DNA of 57,958 nt from an uncultured Christensenella sp. (GCA_949295755.1 CASFMG010000012.1:1-57958), one strand, 5' to 3'. Shown: positions 17,761-29,320, numbered from the stretch's first letter. The notes: a model not told the origin generated them from the sequence alone. Translations and numbers: made by a program.

Positions 17761-17848
17761 GGAAAGTTGGCTGAGTGGTCGAAAGCGGCGGTCTTGAAAA
17801 CCGTTGACCTGAAAGGGTCCTGGGGTTCGAATCCCTAACTTTCCGCCA
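17761..17848 (+). tRNA. tRNA-Ser (anticodon UGA), CCA encoded
   Basis: Cloverleaf folded by hand. Acceptor GGAAAGT/ACTTTCC; anticodon stem GCGGT/ACCGT with loop CT-TGA-AA; long variable arm GACC..GGTC; T arm TGGGG-TTCGAAT-CCCTA; discriminator G then CCA. Confidence 0.95.
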
Positions 17849-19139: not shown

Positions 19140-20138
19140 ATGGAACAAAAATGTCCTATATGCAACAAAAAACATGAAATTATTGACGATGTAAATGAAT
19201 TTAACACAAAGGTTTATAAATGTCAAAAAACAAAATGTAAAATTCATGAAAGTGTTTTCTATGGAATAGATGATGCAGAAAAAGAAAAAAGATTAAATGC
19301 CATTTATAATTTTTTATATGAACATCCATTTGCAGATAAACATAAAACATATTGGAGATTTTTTTTTGAAGAAACAAATAATGCACCTTATGAACACTAT
19401 AATATTAATGTTTTTCATTTGATGCATAACTATCCTTACAATATTGAGAAAAGAATTAACGCTATTTTATTAGCTTTAAACAAATTATATCCAACAATAG
19501 CAGATTCTTTTACTATAAAAGATTTATATACAAATCATCCAAGATTATTTTATCCCGAAAGTTTATCAATGGGAGAAGAAAAAGTTATTAAAGAATTTGT
19601 TAGTATTTATTCTATATTAAGCAAATTAGACTTCATAGAACTAAGAGCAAAAGTTCAGGGTGAACCAGAAAAAACAGAATACGCTTTAACATATGAAGGA
19701 TTAAAGAAAATTAATGAACTTATGCAAGACAATCAAAACTCTAATAAAATTTTTATAGCGATGTCATTTGATCAAGATGTTGAATATATAGAATTAGCAT
19801 TTAAAGAGTCTATTGCCGATGCGGGATTTCAACCTGTAATAATAAAAGATAAAGAACATAATAATTATATTATGCCAGAAATTTTTTATGAAATCGAAAA
19901 TTGTGCAGCAATTGTTATGGATTTAACTAAACCAAATTTTGGAGCGTATTATGAGGCTGGTTATGCTTTAGGTTTAAAAAAACAGGTAATAGCGTGCTGT
20001 AAGGAAACTACTTTTAATAATTCCAAAATAAAGCCACATTTTGATATTTCTCAAAAATCTATGATTATTTGGAAAGATGAAGCTGACTTAAAGGAAAAAT
20101 TAACAAAAAGAATAAAATATACTATCAATGTAAAATAA
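19140..20138 (+). CDS. Zn-ribbon / wHTH-like / C-terminal nucleoside 2-deoxyribosyltransferase-like (TIR-like Rossmannoid) domain protein
   Basis: 332 aa with a strong SD. Zinc ribbon C5-x2-C8 ... C28-x4-C33. Central SILSKLDFIELRAKVQGEPEKTEYALTYEGLKKI resembles a winged helix. C-terminal KIFIAMSFDQD..AAIVMDLTKPNFGAYYEAGYALGLKKQVIACC fits the NDT-like pattern, retaining D261 and E272. The domain calls rest on motif recall only. Confidence 0.5.
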   Translation: MEQKCPICNKKHEIIDDVNEFNTKVYKCQKTKCKIHESVFYGIDDAEKEKRLNAIYNFLYEHPFADKHKTYWRFFFEETNNAPYEHYNINVFHLMHNYPYNIEKRINAILLALNKLYPTIADSFTIKDLYTNHPRLFYPESLSMGEEKVIKEFVSIYSILSKLDFIELRAKVQGEPEKTEYALTYEGLKKINELMQDNQNSNKIFIAMSFDQDVEYIELAFKESIADAGFQPVIIKDKEHNNYIMPEIFYEIENCAAIVMDLTKPNFGAYYEAGYALGLKKQVIACCKETTFNNSKIKPHFDISQKSMIIWKDEADLKEKLTKRIKYTINVK

Positions 20139-20168
20139 AATCGTGCTTTTTAGGGCACGATTTTTTTA
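20139..20168. terminator. Bidirectional terminator between convergent genes
   Basis: Stem aatcgtgc (20139-20146) / gcacgatt (20155-20162), then T7. Confidence 0.7.
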
Positions 20169-21737
20169 TTGTTCTCTTTTTTGAAGTACTGCAAAATATT
20201 CTTTTGAGTAGAATATTGATAGGTCTATGTTTTTATTTATTTCTTGTTCGGTTAATAATTTATGTTTTTCTTTTTCTAAATCAAAGTTGTCTATAATATT
20301 TGTTATTGCACTTTGTGTATAGTTTAAATCGGTAAAGTTATAAAATATAACTATTGCATCGTTATAAAGAATAATTTGTTTAATAAAAGTTTTTACAATA
20401 TGCTTTCTAACTTCATAATTTTCAATATCGCCACAAATAATCTTTTTGAAATATTCCATAACCATATCTTCTGTTAAAAATGATAGATTCTTTTGTTTCT
20501 CTTGTTCAATAGCAATATCGTATTCTGCTATTTGCATTTCAAGTTCTTTTAATCTTACTTTTGTTTGTTCGGTTATAATTCCTAATTCAACAGCACTTAT
20601 AAGATTTTGTGATGCTTTTAATAATTTATCTCGACTTAATTCAAGTGCTTTAATTCTTGCTTCTTCTTCGTTATCACTTTGACATTCTATAATCTTTTTT
20701 GCAATCTTTTTTAAGTTATTATTGTTAGATAGCACTTTCCAAGTTATATCCACAACTTCTTTTTCAAGTTCATCTTTCTTATTAGATTGCATCAGACAAT
20801 TTAAATGCTTTCTTCTTCGTTTTGTTAAGCAAGAATAATATCTATATTTAATTACTTTTTTAATTTCTTTACCAGATTCTCCAACCATTTTATGTTTGCA
20901 ATAACCACAAAATAATTTGCCAGACAAGATATAATCATAAGAATCTTGTTTTCGTATTTGTGCGTGTTTATATGCTTTCCTTAAATCTTGAACTTTTTGC
21001 CAAGTTATTTCATCAATGATCGGTGGATAAATATTTGTGTAAACAGTATCACCATGTTGGACTTTTCCAATATACTTTGTATTTGCAATTATTTTATATA
21101 TTTTCTTATCATCTATTAAAACACCTTTTTTAGTTCTAACATCTCTTGCTTTTAAGTCTTTGGCTATATCTACACCCGTATAACCCTGTGAAAATTTTGT
21201 AAATATTTCTTTTACAATCTTTGCTTCACTTTCATTAATAACATTTCGTTTTTCAACGACATCATATCCATATATTTGATTTCCACCTGTAAAGTATCCT
21301 TTTAAGTAACTTTCATTTAAACCACGAAGCACTTTTTGAGATAGTTCTGCTGAATAGTATTGATTCATACCTTCAAGTAAACTCTCAAGTATTATTCCTT
21401 CTGGTGTGTCTGGTATGTTTTCCATAGCAGATAATAGTTTTACTCCATTACTACTTAAGGTGTGTTTATGTATTGTTGTTTCATATTTGTTTCTACTAAA
21501 TCTATCTAGTTTATATACAATTACATAATCCCATTGTTTCTTATTGCTATCTTTTATCATTCTTTGAAAATCTGGTCTATTATCGTTAGTACCTGTCATT
21601 GCTCTGTCAATGTAAGTATCTAAAATAACAATATTATTTCTTTGAGCAAAATCTTTACAAACTCTTAATTGTCCTTCAATAGATTGTTCTGTTTGACTAT
21701 CACTTGAATATCTTGCATATATAACTGCTGTTTTCAT
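20166..21737 (-). CDS. Large serine recombinase (resolvase/invertase N-terminal domain + recombinase domain + zinc ribbon + coiled coil)
   Basis: 523 aa. SD GGAGG. N-terminal AVIYARYSSDSQ with the catalytic Ser, then DRPDFQRMI and VIVYKLDRFSRN. Zinc ribbon LFCGYCKHKM..YYSC. Long helical C-terminus. Confidence 0.92.
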   Translation of the reverse strand: MKTAVIYARYSSDSQTEQSIEGQLRVCKDFAQRNNIVILDTYIDRAMTGTNDNRPDFQRMIKDSNKKQWDYVIVYKLDRFSRNKYETTIHKHTLSSNGVKLLSAMENIPDTPEGIILESLLEGMNQYYSAELSQKVLRGLNESYLKGYFTGGNQIYGYDVVEKRNVINESEAKIVKEIFTKFSQGYTGVDIAKDLKARDVRTKKGVLIDDKKIYKIIANTKYIGKVQHGDTVYTNIYPPIIDEITWQKVQDLRKAYKHAQIRKQDSYDYILSGKLFCGYCKHKMVGESGKEIKKVIKYRYYSCLTKRRRKHLNCLMQSNKKDELEKEVVDITWKVLSNNNNLKKIAKKIIECQSDNEEEARIKALELSRDKLLKASQNLISAVELGIITEQTKVRLKELEMQIAEYDIAIEQEKQKNLSFLTEDMVMEYFKKIICGDIENYEVRKHIVKTFIKQIILYNDAIVIFYNFTDLNYTQSAITNIIDNFDLEKEKHKLLTEQEINKNIDLSIFYSKEYFAVLQKREQ

Positions 21738-21903
21738 TTTTAACCTCCATACATCTTTTATTAGAGGTTACAATGTTGTTTTTTACATTAGTATCAAGTC
21801 TATGTTTACTTTGTAAATACGGTATGTATATAAAATGTTTCAACAATATTTCTTTAACATATCTTTTTTGTAAACTTGTTTTAACAAATTGTTCTAAAAA
21901 CAT
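21700..21903 (-). CDS. Small basic hypothetical protein upstream of, and overlapping, the recombinase start (candidate regulator/directionality factor)
   Basis: ATG at 21901-21903 is preceded by a perfect AAGGAGG (21913-21919) with an 8-nt spacer. 67 codons, ending 38 nt inside the recombinase gene in another frame. No recognisable motif. Confidence 0.3.
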   Translation of the reverse strand: MFLEQFVKTSLQKRYVKEILLKHFIYIPYLQSKHRLDTNVKNNIVTSNKRCMEVKNENSSYICKIFK

Positions 21904-22040
21904 ATAGTTAACCTCCTTATCGAAAATTTTTTTCGACAAGAAAAAATCATCAGAGAATGGGCGCAGATGTCAAAGAAAAAGAAAAAAAATATTGTCTTTA
22001 AAATTTTGAAATTAAAAGTTTTAAGCAATAATTTTTTCCT

Positions 22041-22069
22041 TTGACAGCCAGAACATTCTATGATAAATT
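22041..22069 (+). promoter_or_regulatory. Strong candidate promoter reading rightward into the long leader of the DUF2075 gene
   Basis: TTGACA (22041-22046), 17-nt spacer ending in TG-a, and -10 TAAATT (22064-22069). No protein gene lies within the next 500 nt. Confidence 0.5.
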
Positions 22070-22271
22070 TCCCAAACGAAAAAGGATGATAACTTAAACC
22101 CAACAAATAGAACAATTTGTTTATATTATTAAGAAATATATAAAATCAATATTTTTATATCCACAATTAATAAAAATCTTATATAATGATTTTTAATATT
22201 GGGATGAAGGTTGTTATATGGGAAAACACAGTCCCGAAGTAATTGAGCAAATGAGAAAATCGAATTAAAAG

Positions 22272-22352
22272 ACAAACGGCAACTAAAAAAATGTGAGGCA
22301 GAAACGGAAAGCCTGCGCGTTGATGCCCACATTAGTTACCGTTTGTTTTTAT
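22272..22352 (+). terminator. Long imperfect hairpin followed by a U-tract (terminator/attenuator-like or structured RNA)
   Basis: Outer arms acaaacggcaactaa (22272-22286) and ttagttaccgtttgt (22332-22346) pair at 14 of 15 positions. An inner helix atgtg(a)ggca / tgcccacat is also present. The G+C-rich interior is followed by tttttatt. Confidence 0.45.
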
Positions 22353-22397
22353 TCACCAAGATTTTAATTGTGAAATTTCTTGCTTTGTTTGTGTTTT

Positions 22398-22455
22398 GGC
22401 GTGTGCTTGTCTGGTGGCGCAAAGCGACACCACTTGTTCAAGACAAGCACACGCC
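22398..22455. repeat. Perfect 15-bp GC-rich inverted repeat enclosing a second small hairpin
   Basis: ggcgtgtgcttgtct (22398-22412) and agacaagcacacgcc (22441-22455). The interior ggtg-g-cgc-aaa-gcg-a-cacc can itself fold. It stands out against the AT-rich background. Confidence 0.7.
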
Positions 22456-22518
22456 AGGATCTCATTTGTTAATTTTTCAATAAAAATATAAAAGTTCAAA
22501 TTCCCCTTGCCCTACCAT

Positions 22519-22547
22519 TTGCTTTTTTTATAATTTTATGATATATC
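22519..22547 (+). promoter_or_regulatory. Candidate proximal promoter of the DUF2075 gene
   Basis: TTGCTT (22519-22524), 17-nt spacer with TG at 22539-22540, -10 TATATC (22542-22547). Confidence 0.4.
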
Positions 22548-22571
22548 TTCAACTGTTAAGGAGAATATATT

Positions 22572-24416
22572 ATGAACGGTTTTATTTCGACAATAGGAGA
22601 TTTTAATACATTATCAACTACTGAAATTCTATCTATTTTAAAAAGTAAGTATTCTAATGCAGAAAAATCACAAATTTTATCATGGGAAACTTTGATAAAT
22701 GATATTAAAAATTCTAAAAAATTTAATGAAATTAATAAAAAATGTTTAATTGGATTGGAAATATCTCTTCCAACGGATGGCATGGCTATTGATTTGTTGA
22801 TTTGTGGTAAAAATTCAATAAAAGAAAAAGAGTGTTTTATTATCGAAGCAAAACAATGGAATGATGATTATATCAACAATAGTCATTTTTCTCAATATAG
22901 AGAACCAGGATTTGAACTACATCCTCAAATTCAAGTATATAGACACTCGTTAAGTTTTAAAGACTATCTTGATATCGGTATTGATTATAATGTTCATAAA
23001 CTCGTTTTTGTTAGAAATTGTTCTAAAAATGGTATTGTAAATTTAATAAATAAAAACACTTTGCTTTCAACTAAAAATATACAAGTTGATAATGATATAG
23101 ATGAAATTATGTCAATTATAGCATCAAATTTAATTTGTGGCGAAATAACAACAGATGAAATAATTAATGCTGAGTATAAGCCATCAAAAAGTATTATTAA
23201 AGCAATGGAGTCTATAGTTTCTCACAACGAACCTTTTATTTTAACAATAGAACAGCAAAATGTGATAAATAAAATTAATGAAGCAATTAATAATGGGAAA
23301 AAAATTATTCGTATTACTGGAGCAGCTGGGTCAGGTAAAACAGCAATTTTATTAAATATGTATGTTAATCTTTTAAATAGACAAGCCAATGGCGAAGATG
23401 TCCGTCCTGTATTTGTTTCTGGAGCACAAAATACGGCTTTTTATAGAAGCACATATCCTGAAGTTGAACGCTCATTTTCATATTCATATTCTTTAGATAA
23501 AATGGTAGCAAAAACAAAAGGCAATTTATATTATGTGTTAATGGATGAAGCACAACATAATCAAGAAGGTATTATACAAACAATGATAGATAGAAATGTA
23601 ACACTTGTACTTTGTTATGATATTTCGCAGGTTATTAATGCTAACAATTCAATTGCTGAACTAACAAATTTAGAAAAAAGAGAAGACTTTTTGTGTATTA
23701 ATTTAGAAAAAAGTGTAAGATTTAACGGCTCTCAATTAGCAGAAAAAAATATAAGAAATTATTTGAAAGGTTCTTTAGATATAAAAGAAGATAATATTTT
23801 TGAATTTAAAGTATTTAATGATTTAAAAACTTTTCAAGAAAAAATTGTTTCTACTATTAATAACCATCCCGATGATACGGTTGCAGTTGTTGGTCTTCTT
23901 TCAAATGATGCTTCAAAATATACAAATTCTGAAAATCCTGACTCAATATTTTTTACTCAATGGGGAAATAAGGCTGAATGTGATTGGCTTCCATATATTA
24001 ATGATAAAAATTATCTTTCAAAAAATAATGGAAACTTATGGGTCGGAACTTGGTGGATGCCTGGCTTAGATGTTGATTACATTGCTGTTATTGTAGGAGG
24101 CGATGCAAATCATTCATCAAATGGTATTAAAGCAATACCTGATCAAGCAAAACATTATTTAATGATGGTAAGTATAGGAAGAAAACTTAACCTTCCAGAT
24201 GAATTATTTGTTACAAAAAAAAGTTTTGGCAAAATTGTTCAAGATAATAGAAAAACTGCAGATAATATCATGAATTATTTAAAAGATAAACCTGACTTAT
24301 ATGAAAATTTTATTAATATGTTTTCTCAATTGTTAAGAAATAATTATTACATAATGATGACCAGAGGAAGAAAAGGCTGTTTTGTCTACTTTACTGACCA
24401 AACAGGAAAGAATTAA
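22572..24416 (+). CDS. DUF2075-type protein: N-terminal PD-(D/E)xK nuclease-like domain fused to a P-loop SF1-like ATPase/helicase
   Basis: 614 aa. SD AAGGAG. Nuclease-like motif LEISLPTDGMAIDLLICG ... CFIIEAKQW (D74, E92, K94). Walker A ITGAAGSGKTA and Walker B YYVLMDEAQH. Later motifs VLCYDISQVI, SVRFNGS, GLDVDYIAVIVGGD and YYIMMTRGRKGCFVY. Confidence 0.8.
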   Translation: MNGFISTIGDFNTLSTTEILSILKSKYSNAEKSQILSWETLINDIKNSKKFNEINKKCLIGLEISLPTDGMAIDLLICGKNSIKEKECFIIEAKQWNDDYINNSHFSQYREPGFELHPQIQVYRHSLSFKDYLDIGIDYNVHKLVFVRNCSKNGIVNLINKNTLLSTKNIQVDNDIDEIMSIIASNLICGEITTDEIINAEYKPSKSIIKAMESIVSHNEPFILTIEQQNVINKINEAINNGKKIIRITGAAGSGKTAILLNMYVNLLNRQANGEDVRPVFVSGAQNTAFYRSTYPEVERSFSYSYSLDKMVAKTKGNLYYVLMDEAQHNQEGIIQTMIDRNVTLVLCYDISQVINANNSIAELTNLEKREDFLCINLEKSVRFNGSQLAEKNIRNYLKGSLDIKEDNIFEFKVFNDLKTFQEKIVSTINNHPDDTVAVVGLLSNDASKYTNSENPDSIFFTQWGNKAECDWLPYINDKNYLSKNNGNLWVGTWWMPGLDVDYIAVIVGGDANHSSNGIKAIPDQAKHYLMMVSIGRKLNLPDELFVTKKSFGKIVQDNRKTADNIMNYLKDKPDLYENFINMFSQLLRNNYYIMMTRGRKGCFVYFTDQTGKN

Positions 24417-24418
24417 TT

Positions 24419-24574
24419 ATGAATATAGATGAAATTATTAATAATATTGCTAATAAATTAAAAGAAAAATTGCCTAAAATATGGATTGGTAAAGAAGCAA
24501 TATTATTTATGAAAAATAATAATTGTAATCATTTGAAAAATCCTAAAATAAGAATAATTAGAATTCCTTTTTAA
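24419..24574 (+). CDS. Small hypothetical ORF (51 aa) coupled to the DUF2075 gene
   Basis: Below the ORF-track length cut-off. The ATG lies 2 nt after the DUF2075 stop, and AGGAAAG lies about 10 nt upstream. Sequence MNIDEIINNIANKLKEKLPKIWIGKEAILFMKNNNCNHLKNPKIRIIRIPF. It could instead be a remnant of a lost gene. Confidence 0.3.
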   Translation: MNIDEIINNIANKLKEKLPKIWIGKEAILFMKNNNCNHLKNPKIRIIRIPF

Positions 24575-24578
24575 ATTA

Positions 24579-24606
24579 TTGTATTTCAGCATTTTTATGA
24601 TATACT
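24579..24606 (+). promoter_or_regulatory. Candidate promoter of the methyltransferase gene
   Basis: TTGTAT (24579-24584), TG at 24598-24599, -10 TATACT (24601-24606). It contains the same 12-mer TTTTATGATATA as the DUF2075 proximal promoter. Confidence 0.4.
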
Positions 24607-24633
24607 TACCCTGTTGCGTAAGGAGTATAATTT

Positions 24634-25818
24634 ATGTATAATTTCAAATTTATTGATTTGTTTTCTGGGATAGGTGGTTTTCATCAAGCACTTCAAAACT
24701 TAGGTGGAGAATGCGTATTTGCTTCTGATATTGATAAATATGCTATAGAAACTTATAAAGGAAATTATGGCATAAATTCAGACTGCAATATTAGGAACGT
24801 AAAAGAAGAGGATATTCCACAACATGATATTTTGTGTGCAGGTTTTCCTTGTCAAGCATTTTCTAAGGCTGGACATCAAAAAGGTTTTGCTGATGAAACA
24901 AGAGGAACTTTGTTTTTTGAAATTATAAGAATATTGAAATATCATAAAACACCTTGTTTTATTTTAGAAAATGTTAGGAATTTAGCTTCTCACGATCATG
25001 GTAATACATGGAAAGTTATTAAAAATTCTCTAAAAGAATTAGGGTATGTAATAACTGAAGATCCTATCATAATAAGTCCACATCAATTAGGCGTTCCGCA
25101 AATAAGAGAAAGAGTTGTTATATTAGGAATACATAAATCTTTAGGTATAGAAAAAATAAATGTAGAATTGCCTGCATTAACTAAAAATGATGTAAATTTT
25201 TTTGATTCTGATATTTTAGAAAAAGGTAAAGTTGATAAAAAATATTATATATCAAAGCATGAAGAAATTGTTTTAAATTGCTGGGACGAATTTATTAAAG
25301 GTGTTAAAGAAAAAGTTATTGGTTTTCCAATTTTAGCTGAAGAATTTGGACAAACTTATGATTATACAATACTAGGTTATCCAAATTGGAGGATGAATTT
25401 TATAAAAAGAACAAGAGACCTTTATGAGAATAATAAAGAGTTTATAGACAATTGGTTAAAAAAATGGAATAATTTGGATACTTTTACAAATACAGAAAAG
25501 AAGTTAGAATGGCAATGTGGAAAAGATTGTTCTTCTATATGGGATGGATTTATTCAGTTTAGACCTTCTGGAATAAGAGTAAAAAGACCTACTGTTTTCC
25601 CATCACTTGTTGCTATGGTGCAAATTCCAATTATTGGTGTAGTTAAAAGAAGACTTACCCCTAGAGAAGCTGCTAGATTACAAAGTTTTCCTGATACATT
25701 TGTATGTAATAAAAATGACCATCAAGCATATAAACAATTTGGAAATGCTGTTAATGTAAAGGTTATTGAATATATGGCTAAACAAATGTTTAAAAATATT
25801 AAGAAAAATAACAATTAA
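24634..25818 (+). CDS. dcm: DNA (cytosine-5)-methyltransferase
   Basis: 394 aa. Motif I FIDLFSGIGGF, motif IV GFPCQAFS, motif VI ENV, motif VIII QIRERV, motif IX RRLTPREAARLQSFPD, motif X QFGNAVNV. All motifs are intact. Confidence 0.93.
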   Translation: MYNFKFIDLFSGIGGFHQALQNLGGECVFASDIDKYAIETYKGNYGINSDCNIRNVKEEDIPQHDILCAGFPCQAFSKAGHQKGFADETRGTLFFEIIRILKYHKTPCFILENVRNLASHDHGNTWKVIKNSLKELGYVITEDPIIISPHQLGVPQIRERVVILGIHKSLGIEKINVELPALTKNDVNFFDSDILEKGKVDKKYYISKHEEIVLNCWDEFIKGVKEKVIGFPILAEEFGQTYDYTILGYPNWRMNFIKRTRDLYENNKEFIDNWLKKWNNLDTFTNTEKKLEWQCGKDCSSIWDGFIQFRPSGIRVKRPTVFPSLVAMVQIPIIGVVKRRLTPREAARLQSFPDTFVCNKNDHQAYKQFGNAVNVKVIEYMAKQMFKNIKKNNN

Positions 25819-25840
25819 ACAAATATACTATTAATTATGT

Positions 25841-26350
25841 TCAAATAAAGTATGTATTTGGATTGATAATTTTTACTTTGCAATTTTTTTGTTTTGCATA
25901 TAAAAGTGTATTTTTCGTTCCACTTGGTTTTCCGTTCCAACAAGCAATACAAATATTAGAGTTGTTAACCATAAATTTATTTCTTTCATTCATGCAGGTT
26001 CGCGTATATTTGGGTGATAAAACAATTTTATTATCACATTGATTTAAAATATTATTATACCTTTCTTGTTGACTAAGTTTCCATTTTGATTCTTGACCTA
26101 AGCAAGGCACTACAGCAATTATTTGTATGTTGTGCTTTTTCTTTAAGTTTAATAAAATTTCAGTTCCTATCATATCAAAACCTTCCGCCATTCCACTTAA
26201 AAAAGTTTTATAACCACATTTGATAGCATTCTCAAATATAGTTTCTAAATCTTTTTTGAATTTAATACAAGATTCTTTTGTTTCATCATAACCCCATGGC
26301 AAAGATTTAGGTCTATGACCTGTAAGGCAAATTGTTTGTTCTTTTATCAT
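25841..26350 (-). CDS. DUF1273 / YpsA-like SLOG family protein
   Basis: 169 aa. N-terminal CLTGHRPKSL, then SGMAEGFDMIGTE, and C-terminal WNGKPSGTKNTL, matching the YpsA-type SLOG pattern as I recall it. Confidence 0.7.
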   Translation of the reverse strand: MIKEQTICLTGHRPKSLPWGYDETKESCIKFKKDLETIFENAIKCGYKTFLSGMAEGFDMIGTEILLNLKKKHNIQIIAVVPCLGQESKWKLSQQERYNNILNQCDNKIVLSPKYTRTCMNERNKFMVNNSNICIACWNGKPSGTKNTLLYAKQKNCKVKIINPNTYFI

Positions 26351-26460
26351 AATATATCCTTTCTTTTATTATTATATGTCATCATATTAGGCAGTTGCAA
26401 GCATTTTGTCATCAAAATAGGCAATAATATCTGTAAAGTATAAAACTTTACGGAGAAACT

Positions 26461-26877
26461 ATGATTGATTTTATAAAATTAGTTGAAAACATTTTGGAAG
26501 AGCAAGACAAAACTAAGCAAGATTTATTTGAAAATAAAGTTATATCGGAAAATACCTTTTTCAAATATAGACAACGCTATCCAAGTCTTAAAACTTTAAT
26601 AAATATTGCGAACTATTTAAAAGTTTCATTAGATTATTTATTTGAGTTTACTAATGAAAATCATTTTGAAGAGTATAAAGAAGAAAATTTAAAGTTTTAT
26701 GAAAATTTAATTTCTTTTATTAATGCTAAGAAAATTTCTTCTAGACAATTTTGTAAAGATTTAGGTTATGCAAAAGACAATATTCTTCGTTGGAAAAATG
26801 GAATACAACCAACTTTTCAAAGATTGCTAGAGATAGCAAAATATTTTAGATGTTCTATTGATGATTTAATTAAATAG
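26461..26877 (+). CDS. Transcriptional regulator with two XRE-type helix-turn-helix units
   Basis: 138 aa. Unit 1 TKQDLFENKVISENTFFKY..LKTLINIANYLKVSLDYLF. Unit 2 SSRQFCKDLGYAKDNILRWKNG..FQRLLEIAKYFRCSIDDLI. Divergent from the SLOG gene. Confidence 0.75.
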   Translation: MIDFIKLVENILEEQDKTKQDLFENKVISENTFFKYRQRYPSLKTLINIANYLKVSLDYLFEFTNENHFEEYKEENLKFYENLISFINAKKISSRQFCKDLGYAKDNILRWKNGIQPTFQRLLEIAKYFRCSIDDLIK

Positions 26878-28835: not shown

Positions 28836-29320
28836 ACTTTATTATTAATCCTTTATTAATACATCGCAATTAAGTCCTTCATATTTTTTCTTTATCATTA
28901 TTTTAATTAATATATTTTCTAAATAAAATTAAATTTAAAATATACTAAAAAATTTATTTCCACCATTTATATGTTATAAACTTTTTATTTGTTCTGCAAA
29001 ATATTATGATCACTTTTTTGTATTTACAATTAAAATTTTGTTAAATAAAAAATAAATAATAGATATTAAACAAAAAAAATTGTTAAATAAATAAATTTAC
29101 ATAAATTTATATTTGTAAAGTTTTTATTTATTAAATTGTATTATATACGGACTATTAAATTTTATGAAAGTATTTACTTTTAAATTGAATAATTATATAA
29201 TTAATTTGAAATTTGATTTTATAAAAATTTGTATTACAATCAAAAAATATAAATCATAAAACTATGTAAACATTACATAATTAACCTCTGTAATTAAATA
29301 ATACATTAAAAGGAAATCTT

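Follow-up and report, generated by a model that had tools for sequence, protein, structure and literature searches.

A probable decayed three-gene defense cassette, with an Nhi-like nuclease-helicase and the remains of a Type II restriction-modification pair, in an uncultured Christensenella sp.

We analyzed a 57,958-nucleotide (nt) stretch of DNA from an uncultured Christensenella sp. (GCA_949295755.1 CASFMG010000012.1:1-57958; hereafter, the window), in which positions 22572-25818 carry three co-oriented open reading frames (ORFs): a gene for a 614-amino-acid (aa) DUF2075 protein, a 51-codon ORF (orf51), and a gene for a Dcm-type C5-cytosine (m5C) DNA methyltransferase. The locus is probably a decayed copy of a mobile three-gene defense cassette, in which an Nhi-like nuclease-helicase has been kept, the restriction endonuclease (REase) has been lost, and the methyltransferase has been orphaned.

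The first gene encodes a single-chain nuclease-helicase of the Nhi-like kind, with a NERD/PD-(D/E)xK nuclease domain and a DUF2075 motor of helicase superfamily 1B (SF1B). The second formerly encoded a 221-aa PD-(D/E)xK Type II REase, and the third encodes its cognate m5C methyltransferase. An in-frame deletion of 510 bp took out the catalytic residues of the REase and left the 51-codon ORF, and the orphan methyltransferase would persist and still mark the host DNA. The addictive nature of restriction-modification (R-M) systems predicts a 'safe' death for them, in which the REase gene is lost first and the methyltransferase gene is kept as an orphan; the order of decay in the window is the one that this knowledge predicts. 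We infer an anti-phage role for the DUF2075 protein, which, by analogy with Nhi, would act alone and independently of the Dcm mark: its SF1B motor, powered by ATP, would load onto the DNA of phages or onto replication intermediates for degradation by its NERD nuclease.

Gene organization and origin of orf51

Reading of the window confirmed the three co-directional ORFs that a sequence-only reading had described. All lie on the plus strand. The intact nuclease-helicase gene (D; 22572-24416, 614 aa) is followed, 2 nt past its stop codon, by orf51 (24419-24574, 51 aa), and the full-length methyltransferase gene (M; 24634-25818, 394 aa) begins 59 nt beyond orf51.

No family in Pfam, NCBIfam, or PADLOC was matched by orf51. 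Its product aligned with the first ~40 and the last ~10 residues of 223-251-aa proteins encoded next to DUF2075 homologues (seven full-length homologues), and in the relative L018, whose DUF2075 protein is 95% identical to that of the window, an intact 221-aa gene occupies the slot of orf51. Compared base by base, the L018 gene exceeds the window copy by exactly 510 bp (170 codons). On mapping against L018, the left flank matched over 113 nt and the right flank over 44 nt, overlapping by 1 nt; the deletion junction lies at 24531-24532 on the plus strand (…AATTGTAATCA / (A)TTTGAAAAATCC…; 1 nt of microhomology). Codons 1 to ~37 and the last ~14 codons were retained in orf51 and residues ~38-207 were removed; the deleted segment held every acidic or lysine residue that is invariant in the family (E43, E54, D76, D84, and K86).

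Because L018 carries an intact gene at this place and the difference is an in-frame 510 bp, orf51 can be identified as the stump of an REase gene (R). It is an in-frame internal deletion allele of the 221-aa gene and not a new component; a stump of a lost endonuclease gene was one of the two origins that the sequence-only reading had offered. An assembly artefact was considered and rejected: the identical 51-aa allele with its flanking genes was found in three other assemblies (ERZ16268265 scaffold_608, ERR10610641, and ERZ17292905), and the deletion allele is therefore real and persistent.

The 221-aa protein family

The family of the 221-aa protein comprised 542 clusters in the protein collection, all unnamed or annotated as 'hypothetical' and none with a Pfam domain, from Firmicutes, Tenericutes, Gastranaerophilales, Elusimicrobia, and Omnitrophica metagenome-assembled genomes (MAGs) and from a Methanobacteriales virus. 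The 221-aa protein had no match among PDB sequences. A Dcm-Vsr pair was also considered; neither orf51 nor the intact 221-aa homologues matched Vsr or any other Pfam family at E <= 0.01. The identity of the family was derived from synteny, structure, and profile-profile comparison.

In three loci, R is paired with an orthologous Dcm gene and no DUF2075 gene is present. R and M are convergent in L019; in L020, R and a convergent M are preceded by a 69-aa HTH_3 gene, located where a C-protein gene would be expected; and in L030, the archaeal virus Caudoviricetes sp. vir323 (BK063679.1, 3287-5648; host Methanobacteriales), the order is M then R. The family has an invariant …FDG…D-F-K-A-H… motif and a glutamate upstream of it; E43, D76, D84, and K86 are invariant. 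A model of an intact 221-aa homologue had a pLDDT of 94.7, and in a Foldseek search with this model, all 50 of the 50 matches listed were Type II REases (DpnI, BglI, HincII, EcoRV, and NhoI).

In L008 and L011, the orthologous Dcm gene is paired with a gene for a protein of ~394-403 aa (R') that bears an N-terminal MTaX1 domain. The L008 protein matched the PADLOC model REase_II PDLC03409 end to end (2.7e-60), and hhalign aligned the 221-aa family with its C-terminal half (probability 96.6%, E = 5e-10); the motifs EWxGFY, D(F/L)KAHS, and RNSNG…R..K(V/I)M are common to both. The idea that R and R' are unrelated enzymes swapped into the same place was rejected, as a homologous nuclease domain is common to both. 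Context, motif, model, and homology together indicate that the 221-aa proteins are Type II REases. Given the R-M pairs, the motif, the structure, and the homology, the natural partner of the methyltransferase is the 221-aa REase and not the DUF2075 protein.

The nuclease-helicase

The 614-aa protein matched NERD at residues 71-146 (Pfam, E = 6.2e-5; 23.9 bits against a cut-off of 22.1) and SLFN-g3_helicase/DUF2075 (PF09848) at residues 243-609 (Pfam, E = 1.4e-29). D74, E92-A-K94, GAAGSGKT (250-257), and DEAQH (325-329) could be read directly, and D74, E92, K94, G253, G255, K256, T257, D325, E326, and Q328 were invariant in an alignment of 44 family sequences. An AlphaFold model built on this 44-member alignment had a pLDDT of 91.1. 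In its N-terminal domain, secondary-structure elements followed one another as in PD-(D/E)xK nucleases (alpha-beta-beta-beta-alpha-beta); D74 lay on strand 2, and E92 and K94 lay on strand 3. The nuclease motif, the DUF2075 layout, and the N-terminal fold were in this way found as the sequence-only reading had expected them. In Foldseek, the whole model matched human SLFN11/SLFN14 and the SF1B helicases Dda, RecD2, Pif1, Upf1, and Dna2.

A profile of the DUF2075 family had no match among PDB sequences, a scan of viral contigs contained no relatives of the family, and a plasmid search with the family returned only DUF2075 proteins at ~21% identity. Between the window and L018, the ratio of nonsynonymous to synonymous substitutions (dN/dS) in the DUF2075 gene was 0.17 (dS 0.12); the window gene is intact and under purifying selection.

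The methyltransferase

The 394-aa protein covered PF00145 in full (positions 1-324 of 324; E = 1.6e-83) and matched TIGR00675 dcm (1e-83), in agreement with the intact Dcm-type enzyme seen earlier. The methyltransferase motifs FSGIGG, GFPCQ, ENV, QxRxR, TPRE, and GNAV were readable, and the closest solved structure for the catalytic domain was M.HhaI (E = 5e-62, residues 4-209). The earlier statement that the genes of this module are intact held for the DUF2075 and methyltransferase genes and failed for the middle gene, which is decayed. Orthologues of the methyltransferase gene (61-85% identity) adjoin a gene of the REase family in L001, L002, L004, L006-L008, L011, L014, L016, L019, L020, L021, and L023-L025.

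AGCT was the most avoided 4-mer palindrome in R-M-bearing loci (observed/expected 0.35; 0 against 21.8 expected in L019), and it was also strongly avoided in control loci with a DUF2075 gene only (observed/expected 0.54). In the window, the observed and Markov-expected counts were 36 and 146 for CATG, 11 and 72 for AGCT, 22 and 87 for GATC, and 14 and 72 for ACGT. Palindrome avoidance was considered as a guide to the target of R and M, and no specificity is claimed, as AGCT is also avoided in the DUF2075-only controls and the window avoids all four palindromes alike. The under-represented palindromes suggest past exposure to several R-M systems.

Linkage and decay in relatives

A scan with one genome per species yielded 17 loci with relatives of the 614-aa protein. 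By tblastn, an orthologue of the methyltransferase (61-83% identity) lay within a few kb in 9 of the 17, and a match to orf51 was likewise found in 9 of the 17. The orf51 match formed the N-terminus of a complete, conserved ORF of 223-251 aa in seven loci (L001, L002, L004, L006, L007, L014, and L016); the gene runs off the contig end in L003, and a short remnant is present in L005. The linkage on which the sequence-only reading leaned is thus found elsewhere, with orthologous Dcm genes adjoining close homologues of the DUF2075 gene.

When distinct loci from the genome scan, a metagenome scan, and exact-protein look-ups were counted, R and/or M, or their remnants, were kept adjacent to D in ~20 of ~28 distinct DUF2075-family loci, in at least five arrangements. 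The order D-R-M occurs in the window, L001, L002, L014, L018, L023, and L031 (L003 shows D-R up to the contig end). D lies between R and M (R-D-M) in L007, L016, L021, L024, and L025 (L029 shows R-D up to the contig end). In L004 and L006, D is followed by convergent R><M; L008 has D-R'-M, and L011 has the divergent arrangement <R'<M D>. An intact adjacent REase gene was found in L001, L002, L014, L018, L019, L020, and L031; the window has the stump only.

D was found with no DNA methyltransferase gene within 6-8 kb in L009, L010, L012/L035, L013, L015, L026, and L032-34, and the D gene of L032-34 lies inside a prophage. The loci with a DUF2075 gene only were mostly basal in a neighbor-joining tree. 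No clean pair of D and M lacking R, R', or a remnant was present among the ~28 loci.

Decay was also seen elsewhere. In L005, a Methanobrevibacter MAG, the intact DUF2075 gene is followed by a 35-codon REase stub (2530-2640, '…IMYMKNNV*') and no methyltransferase gene. L005 is a second, independent decay of the R-M part, truncated at nearly the same point as orf51. That L005 and the window both keep the first ~35 codons may be a coincidence, or the segment may matter. In L018 (5125-6240), R is intact and the methyltransferase ORF is identical for 39 codons and then fused to Peptidase_M16; such a state, with R and without M, would kill the host if the contig is not chimeric and no other methyltransferase gives protection.

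Two other cassettes are also decayed. In L028 (6001-7158), the DUF2075 match breaks off at residue 339 and continues directly as the final 54 residues of the Dcm protein. In L002 (8001-9851), an in-frame stop interrupts the DUF2075 gene immediately before Walker A, and R and M appear to be intact.

A 68-aa HTH_26 gene lies 3 nt 5' of D-R-M in L031 and L003. It was compared with the C-protein of L020 as possibly the same regulator, and this was rejected, as the two are not similar. In L031 (9010-11860), genes for T5orf172/MUG113, ThsB_TIR, and SIR2-STALD lie 3' of the intact HTH-D-R-M unit and a tyrosine integrase gene lies 5' of it; this region is a compact defense island. D was also found in other defense contexts, near AbiH and a reverse transcriptase in L035 and next to AbiJ in L014.

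The archaeal virus L030 and the Methanobrevibacter MAG L005 show that parts of the cassette have spread across domains. The simplest reading is that an autonomous Nhi-like gene became attached to this R-M family and that the trio then spread as a unit across phyla, including into an archaeal MAG. On the same reading, the trio was afterwards rearranged several times without being separated, and parts of it were lost repeatedly. No description of the three-gene cassette appears in those portions of the literature available to us on DUF2075 with Nhi or restriction-modification, on Nhi-like proteins, and on Schlafen anti-phage helicases or methyltransferases.

The leader and the surrounding island

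Alignment showed that ~385 bp directly 5' of the DUF2075 gene (22186-22571, plus strand) are conserved in L018 and L001. The start of this leader (22186-22268) corresponds to the last ~28 codons of an upstream gene, the remainder of which is lost in the window; the same gene in L018 encodes a complete REP_ORF2-G2P rolling-circle Rep. Neighboring mobility genes had been described as decayed, and this Rep-gene stump agrees with that description. The leader contains two strong hairpins (22271-22347 and 22394-22462; RNA fold z-score -4.8). The second (GGCGTGTGCTTGTCTGGTGG…) is near-identical over ~75 nt in the window, L018, and L001, although the flanking proteins of L001 are only ~61% identical. 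The leader hairpins matched no Rfam family at either the gathering or the E-value threshold. One possible role of the hairpin is that of a replication origin used by the upstream rolling-circle Rep; another is that of a small RNA.

An extended -10-like motif, TTTTATGATATA, is present in the leader and recurs 5' of the methyltransferase gene. A scan of 21700-26500 for sigma-70 promoters and terminators gave 38 sites against 33.9 expected and no terminator, and is uninformative in AT-rich DNA. At 22488-22514, GTTCAAATTCCCCTTGCCCTACCA is reminiscent of a tRNA T-loop and acceptor 3' end and is conserved in L001 and L018; ARAGORN called no tRNA at these positions. This site may be the remnant of an old attachment site.

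The cassette sits in an island bounded by tRNA-Ser (17761-17848) and a YgjV/GNAT gene (29321). The island further contains genes for a large serine recombinase, a 332-aa Zn-ribbon protein, a YpsA-family SLOG protein, an HTH protein, and PcfJ. The serine recombinase gene (20166-21737, minus strand; Resolvase, Recombinase, and Zn_ribbon_recom in Pfam) lies outside the cassette. The SLOG gene (25841-26350, minus strand; PF06908, 4.1e-22) is convergent with the methyltransferase gene. A 73% identical copy is found at the same position in L001, and the gene is also present in L038-L040; it accompanies the cassette in its closest relatives.

The 332-aa protein (19140-20138), whose gene adjoins that of the serine recombinase, has a Cys-rich, zinc-ribbon-like N-terminus. 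Its C-terminus gave a weak match to nucleoside 2-deoxyribosyltransferase (Pfam, 8.5e-5, under the cut-off) and also matched a PADLOC TIR effector model (6.6e-6); this gene is possibly a further defense gene next to the recombinase. An imperfect 45-nt direct repeat (20156-20200 and 28961-29005; 71% identity; common end CTGCAAAATATT) flanks 8.8 kb, from the 3' end of the serine recombinase gene to past PcfJ. The repeats possibly mark attachment sites, or their similarity may have arisen by chance in AT-rich DNA.

Alternative explanations

A possible but doubtful alternative is that the three genes form one integrated system, with the nuclease-helicase serving the Type II R-M pair either as one of its working subunits or as a dedicated helper. 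Starting from double-strand breaks that the REase introduces, the helicase might processively unwind the invader and degrade it, like RecBCD after restriction in E. coli, or it might provide a second layer against phages that escape restriction; the window copy would then have lost its trigger and be functionally crippled. Such a system would be consistent with the adjacency of R and/or M, or their remnants, in most of the loci counted, with the five loci in which D stands between R and M, and with the HTH_26 gene just 5' of D-R-M. It would also fit the tight junctions between the genes, which are often overlapping or 2-3 nt long (2 nt in the window and an overlapping ATGA in L007). Neighbor-joining trees of D, R, and M were largely congruent (pairwise-distance r = 0.68), and the D-R-M and R-D-M classes were each monophyletic in all three, although in L004 a D that belongs to the D-R-M clade is joined to R and M genes that group with the R-M-only loci L019 and L020, which implies re-association. 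However, congruent trees would equally fit co-inheritance on a mobile element, R-M pairs of the same family stand alone (L019, L020, and virus vir323), and DUF2075 homologues stand alone in at least eight loci. The R-deleted allele also persists in several samples with its DUF2075 gene under purifying selection, and L005 repeats the pattern of an intact D and a decayed R.

Should the coupling nevertheless be real, D-R-M and R-D-M would represent a previously undescribed R-M class, a Type II pair functionally coupled to a dedicated Nhi-like nuclease-helicase, which we put forward only tentatively. The REase would give sequence- and methylation-specific recognition of the invader, and the SF1B-NERD protein would load on the cut DNA and processively destroy it or take over upon evasion; the window would be a natural 'R-minus' variant showing which of the parts are able to survive alone.

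We prefer the reading of a decayed cassette with an autonomous nuclease-helicase. The DUF2075 protein is likely to be autonomous because of the R-M-free loci, L005, its Nhi-like architecture, and the low dN/dS; its linkage to the R-M pair would reflect co-mobilization and/or cooperation and not an obligate complex. Several points weigh against this reading. Adjacency in five arrangements with tight junctions exceeds simple co-location and hints at functional coupling, in which case the DUF2075 protein of the window may be impaired by the loss of R. The 614-aa protein had no PADLOC match named Nhi at E <= 0.01, although the presence of an Nhi model in the library was not verified. The 221-aa protein had no direct match in Pfam, NCBIfam, or PADLOC, and the Foldseek scores of the REase model were weak (best E = 5.9e-3, probability 0.96; TM 0.26-0.39).

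It is improbable that the NERD-SF1B protein is a replication or mobilization helicase of the mobile element and that the R-M pair is a hitch-hiking addiction module. This explanation would account for the REP_ORF2-G2P gene directly 5' in L018, for its 3' stump and the hairpins 5' of the cassette in the window and L001, and for the serine recombinase and PcfJ in the island. However, other loci have no Rep gene (for example, the integrase-linked L031 island with ThsB_TIR, SIR2-STALD, and T5orf172, and also L035 and L014), and the invariant nuclease triad is unexpected in a pure replication helicase.

Least probable of all is the two-gene model of the sequence-only reading, an ATP-dependent R-M-like system (compare Type I, Type III, or ISP-like systems) in which the DUF2075 protein is a methylation-sensitive restriction nuclease, still functional in the window, from which Dcm protects the host: the two genes are intact and co-oriented while the intervening gene is lost, their linkage holds with or without an MTaX1 domain on the REase, and the window allele persists in other assemblies, but every D-M linkage includes R, R', or a remnant, many D homologues (at least eight loci) have no methyltransferase gene nearby, the Dcm protein has an obvious, conserved cognate in the 221-aa REase, and Nhi and Nhi-like proteins, in the parts of their reports available to us, work as single genes without a methyltransferase.

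Significance

If confirmed, these findings would identify an unannotated and widespread family of small Type II REases and link it to the nuclease domain of the MTaX1 REases. A nuclease-helicase family that is found repeatedly inside an R-M operon would likewise be a concrete and testable case of cooperation between restriction-modification and a nuclease-helicase. Both the three-gene cassette and the REase family, which is unannotated, merit experimental study. For annotation, the window shows that a small coupled ORF beside an orphan methyltransferase gene can be the in-frame remnant of a lost restriction gene, and that an intact neighboring nuclease should not be assumed to be the partner of the methyltransferase.

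Comparison with known systems

In the parts of the reports available to us, Nhi (S. epidermidis SERP2475; Bari et al., bioRxiv 10.1101/776245) and the 'Nhi-like' defense protein (Millman et al., bioRxiv 10.1101/2022.05.11.491447) each combine an N-terminal nuclease with DUF2075 and function as single genes. As a class, nuclease-NTPase systems are reported to lack methyltransferases. The 614-aa protein is likewise a single-chain PD-(D/E)xK and DUF2075 SF1B protein with the same IDLL…IE.K layout, and its family, too, is found on mobile elements and in defense islands. Using the SERP2475 sequence from the supplement of the preprint, hhalign with the DUF2075-family profile gave a probability of 86% and an E-value of 4.8e-6 over 310 colinear columns at ~23% identity, and the alignment stayed colinear across the nuclease motif, Walker A, Walker B, and motif III. 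The 614-aa protein thus appears to be a distant relative of Nhi in a separate family of ~600-620 aa. Unlike Nhi, which has a C-terminal glyoxalase/bleomycin-resistance-like domain, this family lacks such a domain and is regularly part of a Type II R-M operon. Among PADLOC models, the candidate PDC-S41 matched the 614-aa protein best (E = 9.4e-12, with residues 5-285 aligned to positions 7-274 of the 657 in the model); the match is partial and weak and suggests that the N-terminal half resembles this single-gene defense candidate.

The relatives resemble classical Type II (IIP-like) R-M systems in that a small PD-(D/E)xK REase is paired with a Dcm-type methyltransferase in convergent or tandem orientation; they differ in the extra nuclease-helicase gene built into the operon. 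The 221-aa REase family is recognizable only through its homology to the C-terminal domain of the MTaX1 REases (PDLC03409). By losing R and keeping M, the window has followed the usual route to an orphan methyltransferase and in this respect resembles orphan Dcm enzymes.

The CglI and NgoAVII systems are reportedly ATP-dependent and consist of R, an H/N ATPase, and an m5C methyltransferase. Their R is said to be a PLD-family nuclease with a B3-like domain that cuts only with H/N, itself reportedly an SF2 DEAD-Z1 motor without a nuclease. The present cassette is similar in its three genes, for an m5C methyltransferase, a small nuclease, and a large helicase-like ATPase. It differs in that its R is PD-(D/E)xK-like and occurs without the ATPase, and in that the ATPase belongs to SF1B and has its own nuclease domain. 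The components of the cassette belong to known kinds; what is new is their built-in combination, of which the window copy itself is a decayed example.

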